Assembly: GCA_963723165.1 (NCBI GenBank)
Contig: CAVRPP010000003.1
Span: 413,717-477,716 of the forward strand
DNA from: an uncultured Actinomycetota bacterium
GTDB lineage: Bacteria > Actinomycetota > Acidimicrobiia > Spongiisociales > UBA4744
DNA length: 64,000 nucleotides
Direction: 5' to 3'
Shown: positions 44,343-54,972 of the stretch, one piece after another
Numbering within the stretch: position 1 is the stretch's first letter
How the letters are laid out: each line of letters begins with the position of its first letter
Notes under the pieces: generated by a model
What the model was told of the DNA's origin: nothing
Database searches by the model: none
Seen by the model: only the letters and a program-made list of their open reading frames with translations
Program-made: the position numbers and the translations under genes

Positions 44343-45350
44343 TTACCCTTCGGTACCCAATCGGGCGTCGAAGCCGAGCTTCTTGCGGACTGAAGCCATC
44401 TCGCCCTCCGCCCTCATCCGGGCGTCGAGAGCGCCTTTGACCATGATCCTGGTTATCTCTTCATCCTCGAGGGCCTTGAATGCCAACCGGATGGGGCTGA
44501 GACCCTCAACCACCGCTTCCGCGACGGTCACTTTGAAGTGGCCGTATTGCGTGTCGTGGTACTCCCGGACGAGATCGTCGACCGGGCGGCCGGTGAAAAG
44601 CGACAGGATGTCGAGCAGGTTGGAGATGCCGGGCTTCTTTTCCCGGTCGTACAGTATTTCGCTCCCCGAGTCGGTCACTGCCGCCTTGAACCGGGAACGG
44701 ATGGTGTCCGGATCATCCAGTAAGAGAACCCGGCTGTTGGCATCGTCATCGGACTTCGACATCTTTGAGGTCGGATCCTTCAAGGACATGATCCGGGCGC
44801 CGATCTCGGGGGTGATCTGCTCCGGAAGTGGAAACTCGTCGCCAAATCGGGAGTTGAATCGCTCGGCCAGGTCCCGCGCCAGTTCCAGATGCTGGGTCTG
44901 GTCGTCACCGACGGGGACGGCATGAGCCTTGTGGACCAGGATGTCGGCAGCCATGAGCACGGGATAGGCGTATAAACCAAGGTTCTTCCCGGCCTTGTCT
45001 GCCTTCTCTTTGAACTGCGTCATGCGGTTGAGAGCTCCGAGAGATGTGATGGTGCTCAGCATCCACGAGAGCTCGGCGTGCTGGGGCACCTGACTCTGGA
45101 AGTACAGCAACGACCTAGCCGGATCCACTCCGACGGCGAGCAGGAGCTTGGCCGTGTTCAACCGGTTCTGATGGAGGGCAACCGGATCGTACGGAACAGT
45201 GATGGCATGGAGGTCGACGACACAGTAGATGGCGTCGTATCCGTCCTGCAGCTTCACCCAGTTGCGCAGTGCTCCCAGGTAGTTGCCGATATGAATGTCC
45301 CCGGTCGGTTGAATGCCCGAGAACACGGTCTTCTTGTCGCTCACCTTCAT
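44343..45350 (-). CDS. trpS: Tryptophanyl-tRNA synthetase
   Basis: FSGIQPTGDIHIGNYLGAL (HIGH region). KMSKS present (TSKMSKS). Confidence 0.9.
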   Translation of the reverse strand: MKVSDKKTVFSGIQPTGDIHIGNYLGALRNWVKLQDGYDAIYCVVDLHAITVPYDPVALHQNRLNTAKLLLAVGVDPARSLLYFQSQVPQHAELSWMLSTITSLGALNRMTQFKEKADKAGKNLGLYAYPVLMAADILVHKAHAVPVGDDQTQHLELARDLAERFNSRFGDEFPLPEQITPEIGARIMSLKDPTSKMSKSDDDANSRVLLLDDPDTIRSRFKAAVTDSGSEILYDREKKPGISNLLDILSLFTGRPVDDLVREYHDTQYGHFKVTVAEAVVEGLSPIRLAFKALEDEEITRIMVKGALDARMRAEGEMASVRKKLGFDARLGTEG

Positions 45351-45562
45351 CTCCTCAAAGAAAACGTCGGGGCCCCTCGGCCTCCGGCGCACTCGTTCGG
45401 GCGGGCCTCAATCGCCCGCCCTCCGTTCGAACCACATGATTCCCAGAGGCTAATGCAAAGACGGGCGATCCCCACCACGCCCCGCTGGATCTGCGACGCC
45501 GACGGCGGCCCCGCCCGGTGGGATCGACAGTCCGGTCGGGAACCAGGACTTGCTGCTCGCTG

Positions 45563-46945
45563 TCAGGTTGCAGCGGCGGAATTGCCGCCGCCAGGGAATA
45601 GCGTCTTTCGTGAGTCCCAGAAAACAGCACCCAGGATGATGAGCCCACCGACGCCGATGATCCATTTCAGGTACTGATCCTCGAAAGCTTCGCCGCAAGA
45701 AGCGCACTCCCTATTGACGGGAATGGCGCCGATTCTCCCGTTGGCCACAGGCGCAGTGAGATTGGAGTCAACGATGGAGGTCGACGTCGTTTCTGCGGGT
45801 ATGAGTGCCATGTCTGTAGGGGTGTGATCCGTCCCATGACAGCTCGTGCAATCAACCCGACCGAGATGAGGACTATGACAAACAACACACTCCGCATCAA
45901 CAGCCGTAGGGGTGTGATCCGTCCCATGACAGCTCGTGCAATCAACCCGACCGAGATGAGGACTATGACAAACAACACACTCCGCATCAACAGCCGTAGG
46001 GGTGTGATCCGTCCCATGACAGCTCGTGCAATCAACCCGACCGAGATGAGGACTATGACAAACAACACACTCCGCATCAACAGCCGTAGGGGTGTGATCC
46101 GTCCCATGACAGCTCGTGCAATCAACCCGACCGAGATGAGGACTATGGCAAGCAACACACTCCGCATCAACAGCCGTAGGGGTGTGATCCGTCCCATGAC
46201 AGCTCGTGCAATCAACCCGACCGAGATGAGGACTATGACAAACAACACACTCCGCATCAACAGCCGTAGGGGTGTGATCCGTCCCATGACAGCTCGTGCA
46301 ATCAACCCGACCGAGATGAGGACTATGACAAACAACACACTCCGCATCAACAGCCGTAGGGGTGTGATCCGTCCCATGACAGCTCGTGCAATCAACCCGA
46401 CCGTTGTGAGAGATGTGGCAAGCAACACACTCCGCATCAACAGCCGTAGGGGTGTGATCCGTCCCATGACAGCTCGTGCAATCAACCCGACCGTTGTGAG
46501 AGATGTGGCAAGCAACACACTCCGCATCAACAGCCGTAGGGGTGTGATCCGTCCCATGACAGCTCGTGCAATCAACCCGACCGTTGTGAGAGATGTGGCA
46601 AGCAACACACTCCGCATCAACAGCCGTAGGGGTGTGATCCGTCCCATGACAGCTCGTGCAATCAACCCGACCGTTGTGAGAGATGTGGCAAGCAACACAC
46701 TCCGCATCAACAGCCGTAGGGGTGTGATCCGTCTCATGACAGCTCGTGCAATCAGCCCGACCGTTGTGAGAGGTGTGGCAAGCGACACACGCGAAATCAG
46801 CAGGTCCGGGATCCTGGCGAGGACCTCTACTCAGTTGGACGGCCAAGTCACCGCCCGGTATGTCGGCGAGTACCGTCGGCTGGCCAAAAAGTAAGAAGCC
46901 AAGGCCAGCCAGCAGGATGGAGCCGATGGTGAGGCGCTTGTTCAC
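45563..46945 (-). CDS. Membrane-anchored tandem-repeat Cys/His-rich protein with 22 CxxCH motifs (candidate giant multihaem c-type cytochrome, or a novel metal-binding repeat protein)
   Basis: N-terminal signal peptide MNKRLTIGSILLAGLGFLLFGQPTVLA. Eleven 30-aa repeats (DAECV[AV]CH[IS][SP]H[NL]GRVDCTSCHGTDHTPTAV), each with 2 CxxCH. C-terminal TM helix KWIIGVGGLIILGAVFW. This is the only frame with start, signal peptide and TM anchor. Other long ORFs on both strands are periodicity artefacts. Confidence 0.6.
   Translation of the reverse strand: MNKRLTIGSILLAGLGFLLFGQPTVLADIPGGDLAVQLSRGPRQDPGPADFACVACHTSHNGRADCTSCHETDHTPTAVDAECVACHISHNGRVDCTSCHGTDHTPTAVDAECVACHISHNGRVDCTSCHGTDHTPTAVDAECVACHISHNGRVDCTSCHGTDHTPTAVDAECVACHISHNGRVDCTSCHGTDHTPTAVDAECVVCHSPHLGRVDCTSCHGTDHTPTAVDAECVVCHSPHLGRVDCTSCHGTDHTPTAVDAECVACHSPHLGRVDCTSCHGTDHTPTAVDAECVVCHSPHLGRVDCTSCHGTDHTPTAVDAECVVCHSPHLGRVDCTSCHGTDHTPTAVDAECVVCHSPHLGRVDCTSCHGTDHTPTDMALIPAETTSTSIVDSNLTAPVANGRIGAIPVNRECASCGEAFEDQYLKWIIGVGGLIILGAVFWDSRKTLFPGGGNSAAAT
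45815..46810. repeat. Eleven near-identical 90-nt in-frame tandem repeats inside the CxxCH gene, falling into two subfamilies
   Basis: Units start at 45821, 45911, ... 46721. Units toward the gene's 3' end (45821-46360) carry CCGAGATGAGGACTATGACAAACAAC (CVVCHSPHLGRV). Units toward its 5' end (46361-46810) carry CCGTTGTGAGAGATGTGGCAAGCAAC (CVACHISHNGRV). Only a few substitutions separate units. Confidence 0.9.
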
Positions 46946-47503: not shown

Positions 47504-47938
47504 ATGGAGATTGTCTGGGGTGTCGTCCTGATTGTTCTGGGTTTGCTGGCCTGGGGAGGGCAAGGTTTGTCCTATTTCGCTCCCAGCACCGCAGAGAAGC
47601 TGCATCTCACGGAGGGGGAAGAGAAGGTCGAGCCGGTTTTCTGGGCTGATGGCCAAGGTGAAGCGCTCTGGGACTTCTTGACCCTCTGGATCCTGGTGGT
47701 GGCAGGAGTCCTCCTCCTGTTGGATCACGACGCCTGGCCCTATTTCGGTCTGGTCGGCGGAAGCGTCTACGTCTACTTCGCAGGGAGAGGAATCCTCACC
47801 CGACTGGAGATGCAACGCAGCGGATTCCGCATAGGTGACCCAGGCAACGTCCGCCTCGGACTCATCATGCTCGCTGTATGGGGGGTGGTCGGTCTGATCA
47901 CCATCGTCACCGCAGCCACCACTTTCTCCGGCTCATGA
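47504..47938 (+). CDS. Hypothetical small membrane protein (144 aa, 4 TM)
   Basis: Hydrophobic segments MEIVWGVVLIVLGLLAWGG, LWDFLTLWILVVAGVLLLL, LIMLAVWGVVGLITIV. Paralog of the next gene. Confidence 0.5.
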   Translation: MEIVWGVVLIVLGLLAWGGQGLSYFAPSTAEKLHLTEGEEKVEPVFWADGQGEALWDFLTLWILVVAGVLLLLDHDAWPYFGLVGGSVYVYFAGRGILTRLEMQRSGFRIGDPGNVRLGLIMLAVWGVVGLITIVTAATTFSGS

Positions 47939-47966
47939 GCGACCCGTCAAGCAGAAGGTAGCAACC

Positions 47967-48401
47967 GTGGAAGTGACGACAGCGACCTGGCTGATAGCAA
48001 TTGCTGGACTTGTTCTGATACTCCTCCTTGGTGCGTTCCAGTTCGTGGCCGTGTTACGCCCCCGGTCCGATTGGACGGTCCAAAACGTTTACGGAGGTGA
48101 CCCGAACAGCACCGACCCCAAGGCGTACTTCGCCTACAACCAGGGGTACGCCTGGGCCGACGTATTCCTCTGGGCACCGATCCAAATCGCAGGCAGCATC
48201 GGCATGCTCCTTGGCGAGCGGTGGGGTTTTCTACTCGCCCTTGTCGCCTCTGTCCCATACGTATACACAGCCATCACCATCTACATCTGGGATCGCGACC
48301 TCGGTTCCCGCAAGAACACAATCGGCGGCTGGGTGCTCTGGGGGATCTGGCCGGTATTCGGACTCATCCAGGGTATCTACAGCCTTCTCAGACTCCTCTA
48401 A
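47967..48401 (+). CDS. Hypothetical small membrane protein (144 aa), paralog of 47504-47938
   Basis: Same length and TM topology as the upstream gene, with a conserved YVY motif region. Confidence 0.5.
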   Translation: MEVTTATWLIAIAGLVLILLLGAFQFVAVLRPRSDWTVQNVYGGDPNSTDPKAYFAYNQGYAWADVFLWAPIQIAGSIGMLLGERWGFLLALVASVPYVYTAITIYIWDRDLGSRKNTIGGWVLWGIWPVFGLIQGIYSLLRLL

Positions 48402-48469
48402 CCAAAACACCCGCTACCACCGAAACCGATCCGGTTTTCTGACCCCCTATCTCTCTTCCCCCGGTACTG

Positions 48470-48498
48470 TTGACGCCGGCACCTCGATGCGTCATACT
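48470..48498 (+). promoter_or_regulatory. Candidate sigma-A type promoter for the cimA leader (-35 TTGACG, 17-nt spacer, -10 CATACT)
   Basis: TTGACG-N17-CATACT. The predicted transcription start is about 7-9 nt downstream, coinciding with the leader ATG at 48507, i.e. a leaderless leader peptide. Confidence 0.35.
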
Positions 48499-48506
48499 GC
48501 TCCGCC

Positions 48507-48542
48507 ATGTACGCACCTGCAGCCATCATCATTATCGTGTAG
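48507..48542 (+). CDS. Leader peptide MYAPAAIIIIV (4 consecutive Ile codons followed by Val)
   Basis: ATG TAC GCA CCT GCA GCC ATC ATC ATT ATC GTG TAG. It sits immediately upstream of a hairpin and an intrinsic terminator preceding cimA. Confidence 0.55.
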   Translation: MYAPAAIIIIV

Positions 48543-48595
48543 CGCACACGGATAGCCGTGTGCGCCCGACCCTTCGCCCCGCGAAGGGTTTTTTG
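48542..48595 (+). promoter_or_regulatory. Transcription attenuator: 10-bp hairpin (GCGCACACGG-ATAG-CCGTGTGCGC) followed by an intrinsic terminator (CCCTTCG-CCCG-CGAAGGG + TTTTTT)
   Basis: The terminator has a GC stem and a T6 tract at 48589-48594, about 17 nt before the cimA RBS (GGGAGAG). An alternative pairing exists: CGTGT at the leader's Val/stop with ACACG in the first hairpin's left arm. Confidence 0.55.
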
Positions 48596-48611
48596 TACCC
48601 GGGAGAGCACC

Positions 48612-50189
48612 ATGAAGACCGAAATCTACGACACCACCCTTCGCGACGGTTCGCAGCAGGAAGGAATCTCGCTGACGGTCGGCGACAAGTTGCGCATCGC
48701 CTCCCTGCTCGACGAGCTGGGAGTCGACTACGTCGAGGGCGGGTGGCCGGGCGCCAACCCCAAAGACGACGAATTCTTCCATCGTGCCAAGAAGGAACTT
48801 GATTTTGCCACTGCCACACTGGTCGCGTTCGGATCGACCCGTCGACCTCGCGGCACGGTGGCCGATGACCCCCAACTGCAGGCCTTGCTGGCCGCCGAAA
48901 CGGAGATTATCTGCATCGTCGGGAAATCGTGGGACTACCACGTACTCGAAGCGCTCCGGACCGACCTCGATGAGGGAGTCCGCATGGTCGAAGAGTCGAT
49001 AAATTACCTCCGCAGCCACGATCGGCGGGTGTTCTTCGATGCCGAGCACTTCTTCGACGGCTTCCGGACCAATCCCGAATTCGCCGTCAGGGTCTTGCAG
49101 GCCGCGACCGATGCGGGAGCCGAGCGCCTGGTTTTGTGCGATACCAACGGGGGGACGCTTCCGTCGCAAATCCTGACGACCATCGGCCGGATCCAGGAAG
49201 CACTGCCGGACGGCCAGCTGGGCGTCCACTTCCACGACGATGTCGGGTGTGCAGTGGCCAGCTCGCTGATTGCGGTCGATGCCGGAGTGCGCCAGGTGCA
49301 GGGGTGCATCAACGGCTATGGAGAACGGACCGGCAACGCAGACCTTTCGACCCTCATTCCCGATCTGGCTCTCAAGATGGGCCTCCCGGTGCTTCCCGAA
49401 GGCCGGCTCGAGCTCCTCGGGCCGGTGGCCCACCACATTGCCGAGGTTGTGAACATCGCCCTCGACCCGCACCATCCCTATGTCGGGACCTCGGCCTTCA
49501 CCCACAAAGCCGGGCTCCACACCTCGGCTTTGGCTCGCAAGTCGGACGCCTATGAGCACGAGGACCCGGCCCAGGTGGGTAACCACACCAGGATGGTCGT
49601 TTCGGAACTGGCCGGCCGGGCCAGTGTTCTCTCTGAGGCAAAGAACCTCGGACTCGAGGTCGACGCCGACGCGGCTGTTCGCATTCTGGAGCAGGTCAAG
49701 GATCTCGAACACAAGGGATATCACTTCGAGGCTGCCGATGGATCCTTTGAGCTGCTCATGCGGAGAGCCCTCGGGTGGGAACAAGAATTCTTCGAGCTGG
49801 AGTCGTTCCGGGTGTTCACCGACCGGCGCGCCAACGAGGAGATCGTGGCGGAAGCAACGGTCAAGGTGCTCGTAGGAGGCAATCGCGTAGTCACGACCGG
49901 CGAAGGGGTTGGACCGGTCCATGCCCTTGACCAGGCCTTGCGGGCGGCGCTCCGCGAGGCCTATCCGGACATCGATAGGCTCCGCCTGACCGATTACCGG
50001 GTACGAGTCCTTGATTCCTCGCACGGGACGGGAGCGATGGTCCGGGTGTTGCTGGAAACCTCCGCTGAGGACGAATCGTGGGGCACGATCGGGGTCCATG
50101 AGAATGTCATAGAAGCCTCGTGGGACGCCCTGACCGAAGGCCTCATCGTCGGACTGCTCCGTCGGCGAGACGCCAACCCTCCCTTATAG
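48612..50189 (+). CDS. cimA: (R)-citramalate synthase (LeuA-family, CimA clade)
   Basis: MKTEIYDTTLRDGSQQEGISLTVGDKLRIASLLDELGVDYVEGGWPGANPKD...AFGSTRR... is collinear and highly similar to characterised CimA (Geobacter/Leptospira type). A C-terminal regulatory domain is present. Confidence 0.85.
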   Translation: MKTEIYDTTLRDGSQQEGISLTVGDKLRIASLLDELGVDYVEGGWPGANPKDDEFFHRAKKELDFATATLVAFGSTRRPRGTVADDPQLQALLAAETEIICIVGKSWDYHVLEALRTDLDEGVRMVEESINYLRSHDRRVFFDAEHFFDGFRTNPEFAVRVLQAATDAGAERLVLCDTNGGTLPSQILTTIGRIQEALPDGQLGVHFHDDVGCAVASSLIAVDAGVRQVQGCINGYGERTGNADLSTLIPDLALKMGLPVLPEGRLELLGPVAHHIAEVVNIALDPHHPYVGTSAFTHKAGLHTSALARKSDAYEHEDPAQVGNHTRMVVSELAGRASVLSEAKNLGLEVDADAAVRILEQVKDLEHKGYHFEAADGSFELLMRRALGWEQEFFELESFRVFTDRRANEEIVAEATVKVLVGGNRVVTTGEGVGPVHALDQALRAALREAYPDIDRLRLTDYRVRVLDSSHGTGAMVRVLLETSAEDESWGTIGVHENVIEASWDALTEGLIVGLLRRRDANPPL

Positions 50190-50233
50190 TCAGGAAGGTT
50201 CGCGAGAAGGGAACCGGCGTGAACGTTCCGCAC

Positions 50234-51637
50234 ATGACTGCTGATGAGTTTCGGCGGCGGGGCCGAGAGATCATTGATTGGCTCGCTGATTACATGGAGC
50301 GAGTTGAGGAGTACCCGGTGCTCTCGCAGGTCAAACCGGGCGACATTCGTGCTTTGCTGCCCGAACACCCGCCCGCCGCGGGCGAGCCATTCGCCCGGGT
50401 CATGGGCGACCTCGACCGGGTCGTCATGCCCGGGATCACCCACTGGCAATCGCCCTCCTTCTTTGCCTATTTCAATGCCAACGCTTCCGGACCGGCGATT
50501 CTCGGGGATCTGGTTTCCTCCGGTCTCGGAGTACAGGGGATGCTGTGGGCAACCAGTCCCGCTTGCACCGAGCTCGAAACCGTGGTGATGGATTGGCTGG
50601 TGGAGATGCTGGAACTGCCCCCTGCGTTCCTGTCGTCCGGGGCCGGAGGCGGGGTCATCCAAGATTCGGCCTCCAGCGCCACGCTTACGGCCATAATCGC
50701 GGCTCGGGAGGCGGCCACGGAGCGAACCACCAACCACACCGGGACTGTAGGCAACCTCGTTGCCTACACCTCGACCCAGGCGCACTCGTCTATCGAGAAG
50801 GGGATTCGCATCGCCGGGATCGGCACCGACAACCTCCGTTCAGTCGAGGTGGACTCCGCCTTCGCGATGCTCCCCGCGGCCCTGGAAGAAGCCATCGAGG
50901 AGGATCTGGCTGCAGGCCTTCGGCCCTTCTTCGTCTGCGCCACCATCGGAACCACCTCGTCAACGGCCATCGATCCGGTTCGGGCCATCGGCGAAATCTG
51001 CCGCCGGTACGGTCTGTGGCTGCACGTCGATGCGGCGCTGGCCGGGACGGCGGCACTGTTGCCCGAGATGCGCTGGATCCACGATGGAGTCGAACTCGCT
51101 GACAGCTACGTATTCAATCCCCACAAGTGGATGCTGACCAACTTCGATTGCACGGCCTTCTATGTAGCCGACCGAACACCGCTCATCGGAGCGCTCAGCG
51201 TGCTGCCGGAGTACCTTCGCAACGAAGCTTCGGCCTCCGGAGCGGTGATCGACTACCGGGACTGGCACATCCCGCTTGGCCGCCGTTTCCGGGCACTGAA
51301 GCTCTGGTTCGTCATCCGCCATTACGGGATTGAAGGTCTTCAGGCCTTCGTGTCCGAACACATGCGGTTGGCCAAGCTCTTCGCCTCCTGGGTGGATGCC
51401 GAACCCGAGTTCGAACTGGCTGCCCCAACGCCGGTCAATCTCGTCTGCTTTCGCCACACCGGCGGGGACGACGTCAACCAGCGCATCATGGACCGGGTCA
51501 ACCAGTCCGGCGAGATGTATTTCACCCATTCCAGGCTCGACGGAAAGCTCACCTTGAGACTGTCGATCGGACAGACCCACACCGCCGAGCCGCACGTCGC
51601 GAAGGCATGGGAGCTGATCCGGGAAGCGGCTGAATAG
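50234..51637 (+). CDS. Pyridoxal-phosphate dependent group II decarboxylase (aromatic-L-amino-acid / tyrosine decarboxylase-like)
   Basis: MTADEFRRRGREIIDWLADYMERVEEYPV...ITHWQSPSFFAYF...SSATLTAIIAARE...FNPHKWMLTNFDC has the PLP-Lys motif N-P-H-K. Confidence 0.85.
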   Translation: MTADEFRRRGREIIDWLADYMERVEEYPVLSQVKPGDIRALLPEHPPAAGEPFARVMGDLDRVVMPGITHWQSPSFFAYFNANASGPAILGDLVSSGLGVQGMLWATSPACTELETVVMDWLVEMLELPPAFLSSGAGGGVIQDSASSATLTAIIAAREAATERTTNHTGTVGNLVAYTSTQAHSSIEKGIRIAGIGTDNLRSVEVDSAFAMLPAALEEAIEEDLAAGLRPFFVCATIGTTSSTAIDPVRAIGEICRRYGLWLHVDAALAGTAALLPEMRWIHDGVELADSYVFNPHKWMLTNFDCTAFYVADRTPLIGALSVLPEYLRNEASASGAVIDYRDWHIPLGRRFRALKLWFVIRHYGIEGLQAFVSEHMRLAKLFASWVDAEPEFELAAPTPVNLVCFRHTGGDDVNQRIMDRVNQSGEMYFTHSRLDGKLTLRLSIGQTHTAEPHVAKAWELIREAAE

Positions 51638-52302: not shown

Positions 52303-52917
52303 ATGGATGACCTCTCGACCGACCCACGATTCTCACGCCGGTTCATGTTGCGACCGTTCAAACGTCGCGACGCCGACGATATGACCGAGGCCGTGCAGGC
52401 ATCCCAACTCGAACTCAACGAGTGGCTGCCGTGGGCTCATCTCGGCTACACGAAGGGAGATGCCACCACCTACATCCGCGACAGCATCAAGTCCTGGCGG
52501 GAAGAACGCGCCTACGACCTGGCGATCAGGAAGACCGATGAACCGGGTCGTCACATCGGCAACATCTCAGTGTGGTTCGTCTCCCGATCATTCAAAACCG
52601 GCGAGGTCGGGTACTGGGTGCGTACGGACGAAACCTCTCGAGGAGTCGCTACCGAAGTGACGGCCCGGGCGCTGCAGATGGCATTCGAAGAACTCAAGAT
52701 GCACCGGGTGATTCTTCGGATCGCCACCGGGAACCGCGCCAGCGAACGGGTCGCAGAGAAGCTCGGGTTCTTCCGGGAGGGGATTCTGCGCGAGGAGATC
52801 AAGGTTCGTGGCAAATGGCTCGACCACTCGGTCTGGGGTCTGCTCGAACATGAGTACAAGAAGAACCGGGGCAGGTACCAGGACCTCATCGGGGCAACAG
52901 ATCAAGCCGTCGAATAG
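52303..52917 (+). CDS. GNAT family N-acetyltransferase (RimJ/RimL-like)
   Basis: FMLRPFKRRDADDMTEAV...IGNISVWFVSRSFKTGEVGYWV...ILRIATGNRASERVAEKLGF. Confidence 0.8.
   Translation: MDDLSTDPRFSRRFMLRPFKRRDADDMTEAVQASQLELNEWLPWAHLGYTKGDATTYIRDSIKSWREERAYDLAIRKTDEPGRHIGNISVWFVSRSFKTGEVGYWVRTDETSRGVATEVTARALQMAFEELKMHRVILRIATGNRASERVAEKLGFFREGILREEIKVRGKWLDHSVWGLLEHEYKKNRGRYQDLIGATDQAVE

Positions 52918-53324: not shown

Positions 53325-54972
<1,648 letters not shown>

Follow-up and report, generated by a model that had tools for sequence, protein, structure and literature searches.

A candidate isoleucine-sensing attenuator with two nonoverlapping hairpins upstream of the citramalate synthase gene cimA in Acidimicrobiia

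We analyzed a 64,000-nucleotide (nt) stretch of DNA, here called the window, from an uncultured bacterium of the class Acidimicrobiia (NCBI GenBank assembly GCA_963723165.1, contig CAVRPP010000003.1, positions 413,717 to 477,716 of the forward strand; positions below are those of the window), in which a compact leader precedes cimA, the gene for citramalate synthase. The leader comprises a promoter, a mini open reading frame (ORF) ending in isoleucine codons, and two adjacent hairpins, H1 and the intrinsic terminator T. We propose that it is probably a ribosome-mediated, isoleucine-sensing transcription attenuator of cimA, operating on a leaderless mRNA and built from two hairpins that do not overlap. 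A first-pass annotation, made by a model from the letters alone, had suggested an isoleucine-responsive cimA attenuator of the classical kind: its leader, Ile run, and terminator prove to be conserved in relatives, while the mutually exclusive RNA structures of the classical arrangement were not found.

Anatomy of the cimA leader

The regulated gene, cimA (48612 to 50189, + strand), encodes a protein of 525 amino acids (aa) that scores 677 bits on the TIGR00977 equivalog model (cutoff, 450) and far below the models' own cutoffs for LeuA/2-isopropylmalate synthase, in agreement with the name first given to the gene; its start is the ATG at 48612 rather than at 48613, as first stated. Upstream, sequence reading and a consensus scan place a σ70-type promoter at 48470 to 48498 on the + strand: a −35 hexamer, TTGACG (48470 to 48475), and, 17 nt past it, a −10 hexamer, CATACT (48493 to 48498), which lies 8 nt before the ATG of the leader mini-ORF. 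This mini-ORF (48507 to 48542, +; ATG TAC GCA CCT GCA GCC ATC ATC ATT ATC GTG TAG) has 11 codons plus the TAG stop and would encode the peptide MYAPAAIIIIV; its four Ile codons, ATC ATC ATT ATC (48525 to 48536, +), are the candidate regulatory codons and include one rare ATT (48531 to 48533). No Shine-Dalgarno (SD) sequence precedes the leader ATG at 48507. Since the −10 hexamer lies only 8 nt before this ATG, the transcript is predicted to be leaderless or nearly so, with a 5′ untranslated region of 0 to 3 nt.

Folding places H1 at 48542 to 48565 (+), as a 10-bp hairpin of −19.2 kcal/mol with a 5′ arm, GCGCACACGG (48542 to 48551, +), a loop, AUAG (ATAG in DNA), and a 3′ arm, CCGTGTGCGC (48556 to 48565, +; CCGUGUGCGC in RNA spelling). 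Its first G is the last base of the leader TAG, and the last Ile codon starts 8 nt before it. A linker at 48566 to 48567 (+), 2 nt long if T is given a 10-pair stem and 3 nt long by a narrower parse of that stem, leads to T (48568 to 48594, +), which pairs 48568 to 48577 with 48581 to 48590 around a CCC loop. The core of T, CCCTTCGC / GCGAAGGG (48570 to 48588, +; also written CCCUUCGC/GCGAAGGG), is followed by a tract of six U residues (U6; T6 in DNA) at 48589 to 48594. The leader stop codon, ending at 48542, is thus 26 nt upstream of the start of T at 48568, with H1 between them. A putative cimA ribosome-binding site (RBS), GGGAGAG (48601 to 48607, +; read from the sequence), begins 6 nt past the T-run, and the cimA ATG follows the U-tract by 17 nt, too short a distance to leave space for a separate cimA promoter.

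The promoter, the mini-ORF with its four Ile codons, and the 10-bp hairpin directly at the stop had all been read correctly in the first-pass annotation. Its GC-rich terminator with a T6 tract is also present, with trivial differences: the 7-bp stem and CCCG loop described there become a CCC loop and a stem of up to 10 pairs. The 17 nt that it gave between terminator and RBS is the distance to the start codon.

As a whole, the leader (48505 to 48612; 108 nt) folds as H1 plus T with −41.6 kcal/mol (z = −3.4), and 0 of 200 shuffles did as well. Counts of single sites in the window do not exceed those expected in shuffled sequence, either for promoter-like sites (2 versus 1.2) or for terminator-like sites (3 versus 4.0); the significance of the element is therefore carried by its conservation in 38 + 23 related loci, described below. 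A search of 47900 to 49100 with Rfam models (cmscan, E up to 10) matched none of the leader families (Leu, Thr, His, or Trp), T-boxes, or riboswitches, and its sole match was a chance snoRNA outside the element.

The leader module in related genomes

Scanning one genome per species with the window CimA protein yielded 80 cimA loci (L001 to L080), 79 of them usable. All 80 are from Acidimicrobiia or unclassified Actinomycetota, with CimA identities of 54 to 92%, and almost all are from uncultured genomes (metagenome-assembled or single-cell assemblies). Across this range, the predicted leaderless mini-ORF with its C-terminal Ile run and the terminator are kept, so that the conservation proposed as a check in the first-pass annotation is borne out. 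Two arrangements of the module were found, which we call type A and type B; 18 of the 79 loci fell outside our automated filters.

In type A (38 of 79 loci, ranging from low GC to 66% GC), the module lies directly 5′ of cimA, as in the window; one metagenome contig of 66% GC also has it, before a cimA of 70% identity. The type A promoter has the form TTGACN-N17/18-(C/G)ATACT, with the start codon 8 to 9 nt farther on: TTGAC(N) at the same spacing is kept in nearly all type A loci, and nearly all of the high-GC ones have (C/G)ATACT 8 to 9 nt before a leader start that lacks an SD sequence. The leader ORF is 8 to 16 codons long, and its frame, start, and stop are kept in the 38 loci. Its N-terminal residues vary freely, and the Ile run, mostly of 3 to 5 codons, is the sole conserved part of the peptide; in 33 of 39 type A cases a single codon stands between the last Ile and the stop, and the last six residues are 53% Ile, 2% Val, and 1% Leu. 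In all 37 parsed type A loci, H1 begins within 3 nt of where the stop codon ends (−3 to +3), and T is present, with 4 to 8 U residues in the first 8 nt past its stem, although many of the U-tracts are interrupted. The linker between H1 and T measures 0 to 7 nt, and cimA starts 13 to 67 nt past T. "Candidatus Actinomarina" keeps the design as MKKIIIII* with AT-rich hairpins.

Several type A and neighboring loci vary in their details. Threonine codons are enriched just 5′ of the Ile run, Thr making up 15 to 18% of type A leader residues, and Thr-Ile leaders are found in L010 to L012, L025 to L033, and L036 (for example, MTSPTTTIIIT, MNEPTTTIIIA, and MTTNPTWTIIIIE); low threonine might thus also induce what is a threonine-independent route to 2-oxobutanoate. 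In L004 and L006, an in-frame ATG stands right past the U-tract, 5 and 17 codons 5′ of the alignment-inferred cimA start, and in some relatives cimA might start nearer the terminator than we assumed. Two of the loci outside the automated filters were inspected by eye: L023 has H1 and T at a contig edge, and L046 has, about 150 to 110 nt 5′ of cimA, a leader ending in ...G-L-I-L-T* (CTC ATT CTC) with a normal H1 and T behind it, a hint that this lineage has moved toward sensing Leu and Ile.

In type B (23 loci), an equivalent module is found about 2 kb upstream of cimA, before leuB, and cimA is preceded by a gene with an IlvE C terminus. We annotated the gene order leuB-ilvE-cimA in two of these loci; in L067 the leader (870 to 905) is followed by leuB (922 to 2013), ilvE (2058 to 2975), and cimA (from about 2992), and L048, L053, L061, L039, and others have an arrangement like it. 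The type B small ORF (sORF) is likewise predicted to be leaderless, with a TACACT-like −10 hexamer 7 to 9 nt before its start, and the tails of its peptides mix Ile with Val (VIIIP, IVVIP, AIVIP, and others; 41% Ile and 17% Val). In most type B loci the final base of the stop codon is also the first of H1, the linker is about 1 to 5 nt (judged by eye from dot-bracket folds and not tabulated), and the terminator is of a different sequence, ACCGUCCAC...GUGGGCGGUU. Between the two types the architecture is thus conserved while the sequences have been replaced, and the amino acid content of the leader tracks the genes that it would regulate: Ile for cimA, and Ile plus Val for an operon that includes leuB and ilvE.

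These comparisons bear on whether the unit senses an amino acid at all. The stretch from promoter to T could instead make a small RNA or encode a small hydrophobic peptide, or its terminator could serve simply to end the upstream genes, the Ile run being incidental. Attenuator-derived RNAs can act in trans (rnTrpL, PMC6614838), and T could stop readthrough from the upstream + strand ORFs. We nevertheless regard such readings as extremely improbable, since the peptide is not conserved apart from its Ile run, cimA has no other promoter, and it is cimA or leuB-ilvE-cimA that the module accompanies, not the upstream gene: none of the related loci has a homolog of the ORF just upstream in the window (47967 to 48401), not even L001 on contig CAVPPF010000005.1, with a CimA 92% identical, which argues that the module is part of the cimA unit. 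Scanning metagenomes with ATCATCATTATCNNNTAG (15 specified bases), useful as a negative control only, agrees with this: among the 120 matches listed, 119 lack the ORF-H1-T architecture and are mostly low-GC chance matches, and the sole true module is upstream of a cimA. A generic scan for sORF-hairpin-terminator units with codon runs for other amino acids found none beyond the cimA-leader family, either in the window or in L001 to L080.

Hairpin structure and the search for an antiterminator

H1 behaves as an RNA structure. The 37 parsed loci have 25 distinct H1 5′ arms, every one of which is paired with its 3′ arm, so that the arms covary; median stabilities are −18.3 kcal/mol for H1 and −16.5 kcal/mol for T. 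Compared with shuffled partners, arm complementarity gave a mean z of −4.6 for H1 and −4.5 for T, with 100% of sequences showing the effect. We judged covariation by such shuffled-duplex controls and by per-sequence stem tallies instead of by alignment: MAFFT alignments of the leaders failed to align H1, whose arm sequences differ, and RNAalifold recovered only T.

In a classical attenuator, a ribosome stalled at the regulatory codons lets an antiterminator form that shares bases with the terminator, while a ribosome at the stop codon prevents it. We modeled these states by folding each leader to the end of the T stem with a ribosome at the first Ile, last Ile, or stop codon, the mRNA being masked up to 10 or 13 nt beyond where the A-site codon begins, counted from its first base. 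H1 survived intact when the ribosome stood at the Ile codons but was melted by one at the stop codon; it thus switches in silico as does the antiterminator in the Mycobacterium tuberculosis ilvB1 model, and it occupies the same place, directly past the stop of the upstream ORF (uORF). T did not respond in kind: it remained in the minimum-energy structure of 36 of 37 sequences at every ribosome position, and in none of the 37 parsed sequences does a base belong to both H1 and T. The mutually exclusive terminator and antiterminator folds for which the first-pass annotation had proposed a check are therefore not seen.

Other partners for T were no more evident. Blocking either of its arms in folding exposed no substantial alternative partner, and when we compared ten leader segments all against all, loops included so as to admit loop-loop pairs of pseudoknots, every pair other than the H1 arms and the T arms scored between z = −0.7 and +1.1, including the H1 3′ arm plus linker against the T 3′ arm (z = −0.26). 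The alternative CGTGT/ACACG pairing noted in the first-pass annotation, between the last leader codons and H1, does exist in the window and would speak for a classical switch; it lies outside the minimum-energy fold, does not touch the terminator, and is not conserved (Ile tail against the H1 5′ arm, mean z = +0.31); the codon just ahead of the stop, on which CGUGU depends, differs from locus to locus. As modeled, then, no antiterminator competes with T, and we consider a classical mechanism very improbable here.

The same screen bears on a posttranscriptional mechanism, in which T would be constitutive and leaky, and a ribosome stalled near the 5′ end would stabilize the read-through mRNA (for example, against 5′-end-dependent RNases) or alter cimA translation. 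Precedent comes from the leaderless Cys sORFs of mycobacteria, which act on translation and not on termination, and the interrupted U-tracts of many T hairpins suggest partial termination. No leader segment is complementary to the cimA RBS region, however, the Ile tract included: the Ile tail against the RBS-containing segment 3′ of T gave a mean z of +0.21, with 0% of sequences below −2. Such a mechanism would also give no reason why H1 is so strictly placed at the stop codon and beside T, and we judge it very improbable.

We considered several further roles for the region and set them aside. H1 is unlikely to be a protein operator, its arms covarying rather than being conserved; the sequence is not slippery, as hungry-codon frameshifting would need; the region is too short and too structured for a Rho site; and a conserved elemental pause motif 10 nt past H1 fits type A, but not type B.

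Codon choice and ribosome position

The choice of Ile codons in the leader is not that of the gene downstream. AUU accounts for 29% of leader Ile codons but for 7% of those in the adjacent cimA coding sequences (Fisher P = 4e-10, for sequences that are not phylogenetically independent), and each of the 33 leader AUU codons is either the last or the next-to-last codon of the Ile run. Among type B leaders, 19 of 23 use AUU as the second codon before the stop, and GUA, a rare Val codon, is frequent. Measured from the first base of the last Ile codon to the first paired base of H1, the spacing is most often 8 nt (range in type A, 5 to 12 nt), and 20 of the 23 type B loci have a spacing of 7 to 8 nt.

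On the 30S subunit, mRNA enters at about +12 from the first P-site base. With the last Ile codon in the A site, the start of H1 would lie about +12 from the first P-site base, that is, at the 30S mRNA entrance. The enrichment of AUU and its confinement to the last Ile positions thus argue that selection has placed the slowest codons where a waiting ribosome would abut H1.

A model for readthrough

These observations suggest how Ile supply could control cimA. Transcription would start at or within about 3 nt of the leader AUG, and a ribosome would translate the 11-codon ORF; because T ends just 17 nt before the cimA start codon, RNA polymerase would have to pass T to reach cimA. With Ile-tRNA plentiful, the ribosome would reach the stop codon, unwind H1, and leave; with H1 opened and the ribosome gone, T would fold and transcription would end after about 88 nt. 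With Ile-tRNA scarce, the ribosome would stall at the last Ile codons, including the rare AUU, with its mRNA entrance flush against an intact H1 (8 nt; P-site +12). Since the ends of H1 are side by side and T begins a few nt on (0 to 7 nt in type A), a ribosome so stalled would be held next to the base of T, which has to form far inside the channel by which RNA leaves the polymerase. The ribosome would thus hinder completion of the T stem sterically, not by competition for base pairs, and polymerase would read through into cimA.

We think it very likely that readthrough responds to Ile. The steric coupling of a stalled ribosome and H1 to T is a tentative proposal that we regard as possible; it accounts for why H1 sits at the stop with rare codons about 8 nt ahead of it, why the linker is short, why H1 covaries freely, and why an antiterminator is missing. 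Coupling may alternatively be by a cryptic tertiary contact or a bound factor. More doubtful still is the generalization that leaders of this kind form a class of attenuator without antiterminator RNA, which could be called hairpin-bridged ribosome occlusion, and that this is the standard branched-chain amino acid (BCAA) attenuator across Acidimicrobiia.

H1 might also act without help from the ribosome. A closed H1 near T, perhaps as a pause hairpin, could itself impede folding of T in the exit channel, and termination would occur only when a ribosome at the stop codon melts H1. Such gating would be consistent with the location of H1 at the stop, the short linker, and melting by a ribosome at the stop codon only, and H1 is at least as stable as T (median, −18.3 versus −16.5 kcal/mol). 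It offers no explanation for the confinement of rare AUU codons to positions where the ribosome abuts H1, it would make termination hang on precise timing of the ribosome on a leaderless mRNA, and linkers of up to 7 nt may relieve the clash caused by a hairpin alone; we regard it as unlikely. The two models differ in what they predict for an untranslated leader: under ribosome occlusion, expression would be low, whereas with H1 alone as the gate the untranslated default would be readthrough, and expression would be high in a start-codon mutant.

Several points count against the attenuator that we propose. The evidence for it is all sequence-based, and the classical hallmark, an antiterminator overlapping T, is absent from both the masked folds and the duplex screen, which leaves the link from stalling to readthrough hypothetical. 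The steric model is built on textbook dimensions of the ribosome and RNA polymerase rather than on computation, and in a few loci AUU lies 13 to 15 nt from H1. Our counts come from related loci that are not phylogenetically independent, and they overstate the number of independent events. Finally, in the Streptomyces coelicolor ilvB leader, mutation of candidate regulatory codons had no effect (as cited in PMC1262725), so that actinobacterial leaders do not always act as predicted.

Comparison with known systems

Leader-peptide attenuators of enterobacteria (trp, his, leu, thr, ilvGMEDA, and ilvBN) work through overlapping 1:2, 2:3, and 3:4 helices. The cimA leader resembles them in having a short ORF with tandem cognate codons, an intrinsic terminator before the first structural gene, and a feedback logic that would run via charged tRNA; like the leader of the Escherichia coli thr operon (thrL), some type A leaders combine Thr and Ile codons. 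It differs in having two independent adjacent hairpins and no SD sequence, and in placing its candidate regulatory codons 1 to 2 codons from the stop and 8 nt from the hairpin.

A second comparison is with E. coli pyrBI, where a ribosome occludes the terminator: there, the leader ORF extends across the terminator, and the signal, pausing of RNA polymerase, arises at low UTP. In the cimA leader the stop codon is 26 nt upstream of T, and H1 would bridge the gap. A factor bound to nascent RNA beside a terminator can alter termination beyond competition between structures, as found for TRAP at the Bacillus subtilis trp operon (PMC3064811). In both systems, as we propose for the stalled ribosome with H1, termination is set by a bulky factor near the terminator; TRAP promotes termination, whereas a ribosome stalled at the cimA leader would prevent it.

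Closest in layout are the ilvB leaders of actinobacteria. As in M. tuberculosis ilvB1NC and in the ilvB leaders of Corynebacterium and Streptomyces, a uORF rich in BCAA codons carries them near its stop, and, as in ilvB1NC, a hairpin directly past the stop is followed by a Rho-independent terminator. In M. tuberculosis ilvB1, where the uORF lies inside a 166-nt leader and the model invokes mutually exclusive hairpins, mutating the LVVI codons of the leader abolishes induction (PMC13236596). The proposal there, too, is that a ribosome at the stop masks the first hairpin, and rare codons serve as sensors in both systems: GUA in ilvB1, and here putatively AUU, joined in type B by GUA. The likeness is one of layout: the target is cimA or leuB-ilvE-cimA, not ilvB(N)C; the codons before cimA are Ile only; the cimA mRNA is predicted to be leaderless; and its first hairpin does not overlap the terminator. 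The missing antiterminator agrees with a remark of 2005 that attenuators in actinobacteria often "lack components" found in the classical scheme (PMC1262725).

Mycobacteria, too, have leaderless sensor sORFs (Canestrari et al., bioRxiv 10.1101/834739). The polycysteine sORFs there are leaderless first cistrons with a 3′ run of cognate codons that sense tRNA charging for a biosynthetic operon, as is predicted for the cimA leader ORF. They act translationally, by pairing of the Cys tract with the SD sequence of the next gene, and have no terminator; the cimA Ile tract is not complementary to the RBS region, and a canonical terminator is conserved.

Our literature searches found no report of a cimA leader peptide or attenuator, none of attenuation or of citramalate regulation in Acidimicrobiia, and no attenuators described as lacking an antiterminator. 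An amino acid-sensing leader peptide before a terminator is, as a kind of element, already known; as far as these searches go, what is new is the target gene, the combination of a predicted leaderless form with a terminator, and above all the conserved design of two hairpins that do not overlap.

Genomic neighborhood

Downstream of cimA, on the same strand, is an ORF for a pyridoxal phosphate-dependent decarboxylase (50120 to 51637, +; PF00282) with weak similarity to L-2,4-diaminobutyrate decarboxylase. In its longest form this ORF overlaps the cimA stop, and the gene adjoins cimA on the same strand in L001, L003, L005, L009, and L010; it may be cotranscribed with cimA and so fall under the same attenuator. 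Upstream of the promoter, two ORFs of 144 aa (47504 to 47938 and 47967 to 48401, both +) have no Pfam or NCBIfam match and may be a variable region, or not real genes. Farther out lie genes for a class I Trp/Tyr-tRNA synthetase (44343 to 45392, −), a protein with zinc-ribbon and cytochrome c3 domains (45563 to 46945, −), and a GNAT acetyltransferase (52303 to 52917, +), as well as a Cpn60-family chaperonin ORF (53764 to 54951, −). The 64-kb window holds no other BCAA genes.

Biological significance

At least 61 loci appear to carry a leader-peptide attenuator that dispenses with an overlapping antiterminator. If so, the "lack components" puzzle of 2005 (PMC1262725) can be recast as a testable geometry, in which a hairpin abutting the terminator has a rare codon about 8 nt ahead of it. 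The module of about 125 nt, with its promoter, 11-codon putative sensor, and two hairpins, is also a candidate part for amino acid-responsive control in high-GC hosts.

For the bacteria themselves, the leader offers evidence from regulation, and so apart from homology, that in Acidimicrobiia the TIGR00977 enzyme probably works in isoleucine synthesis by the citramalate route, and it indicates that this route may be feedback controlled via the charging of Ile-tRNA, in a class that is abundant in soil, marine, and wastewater environments.

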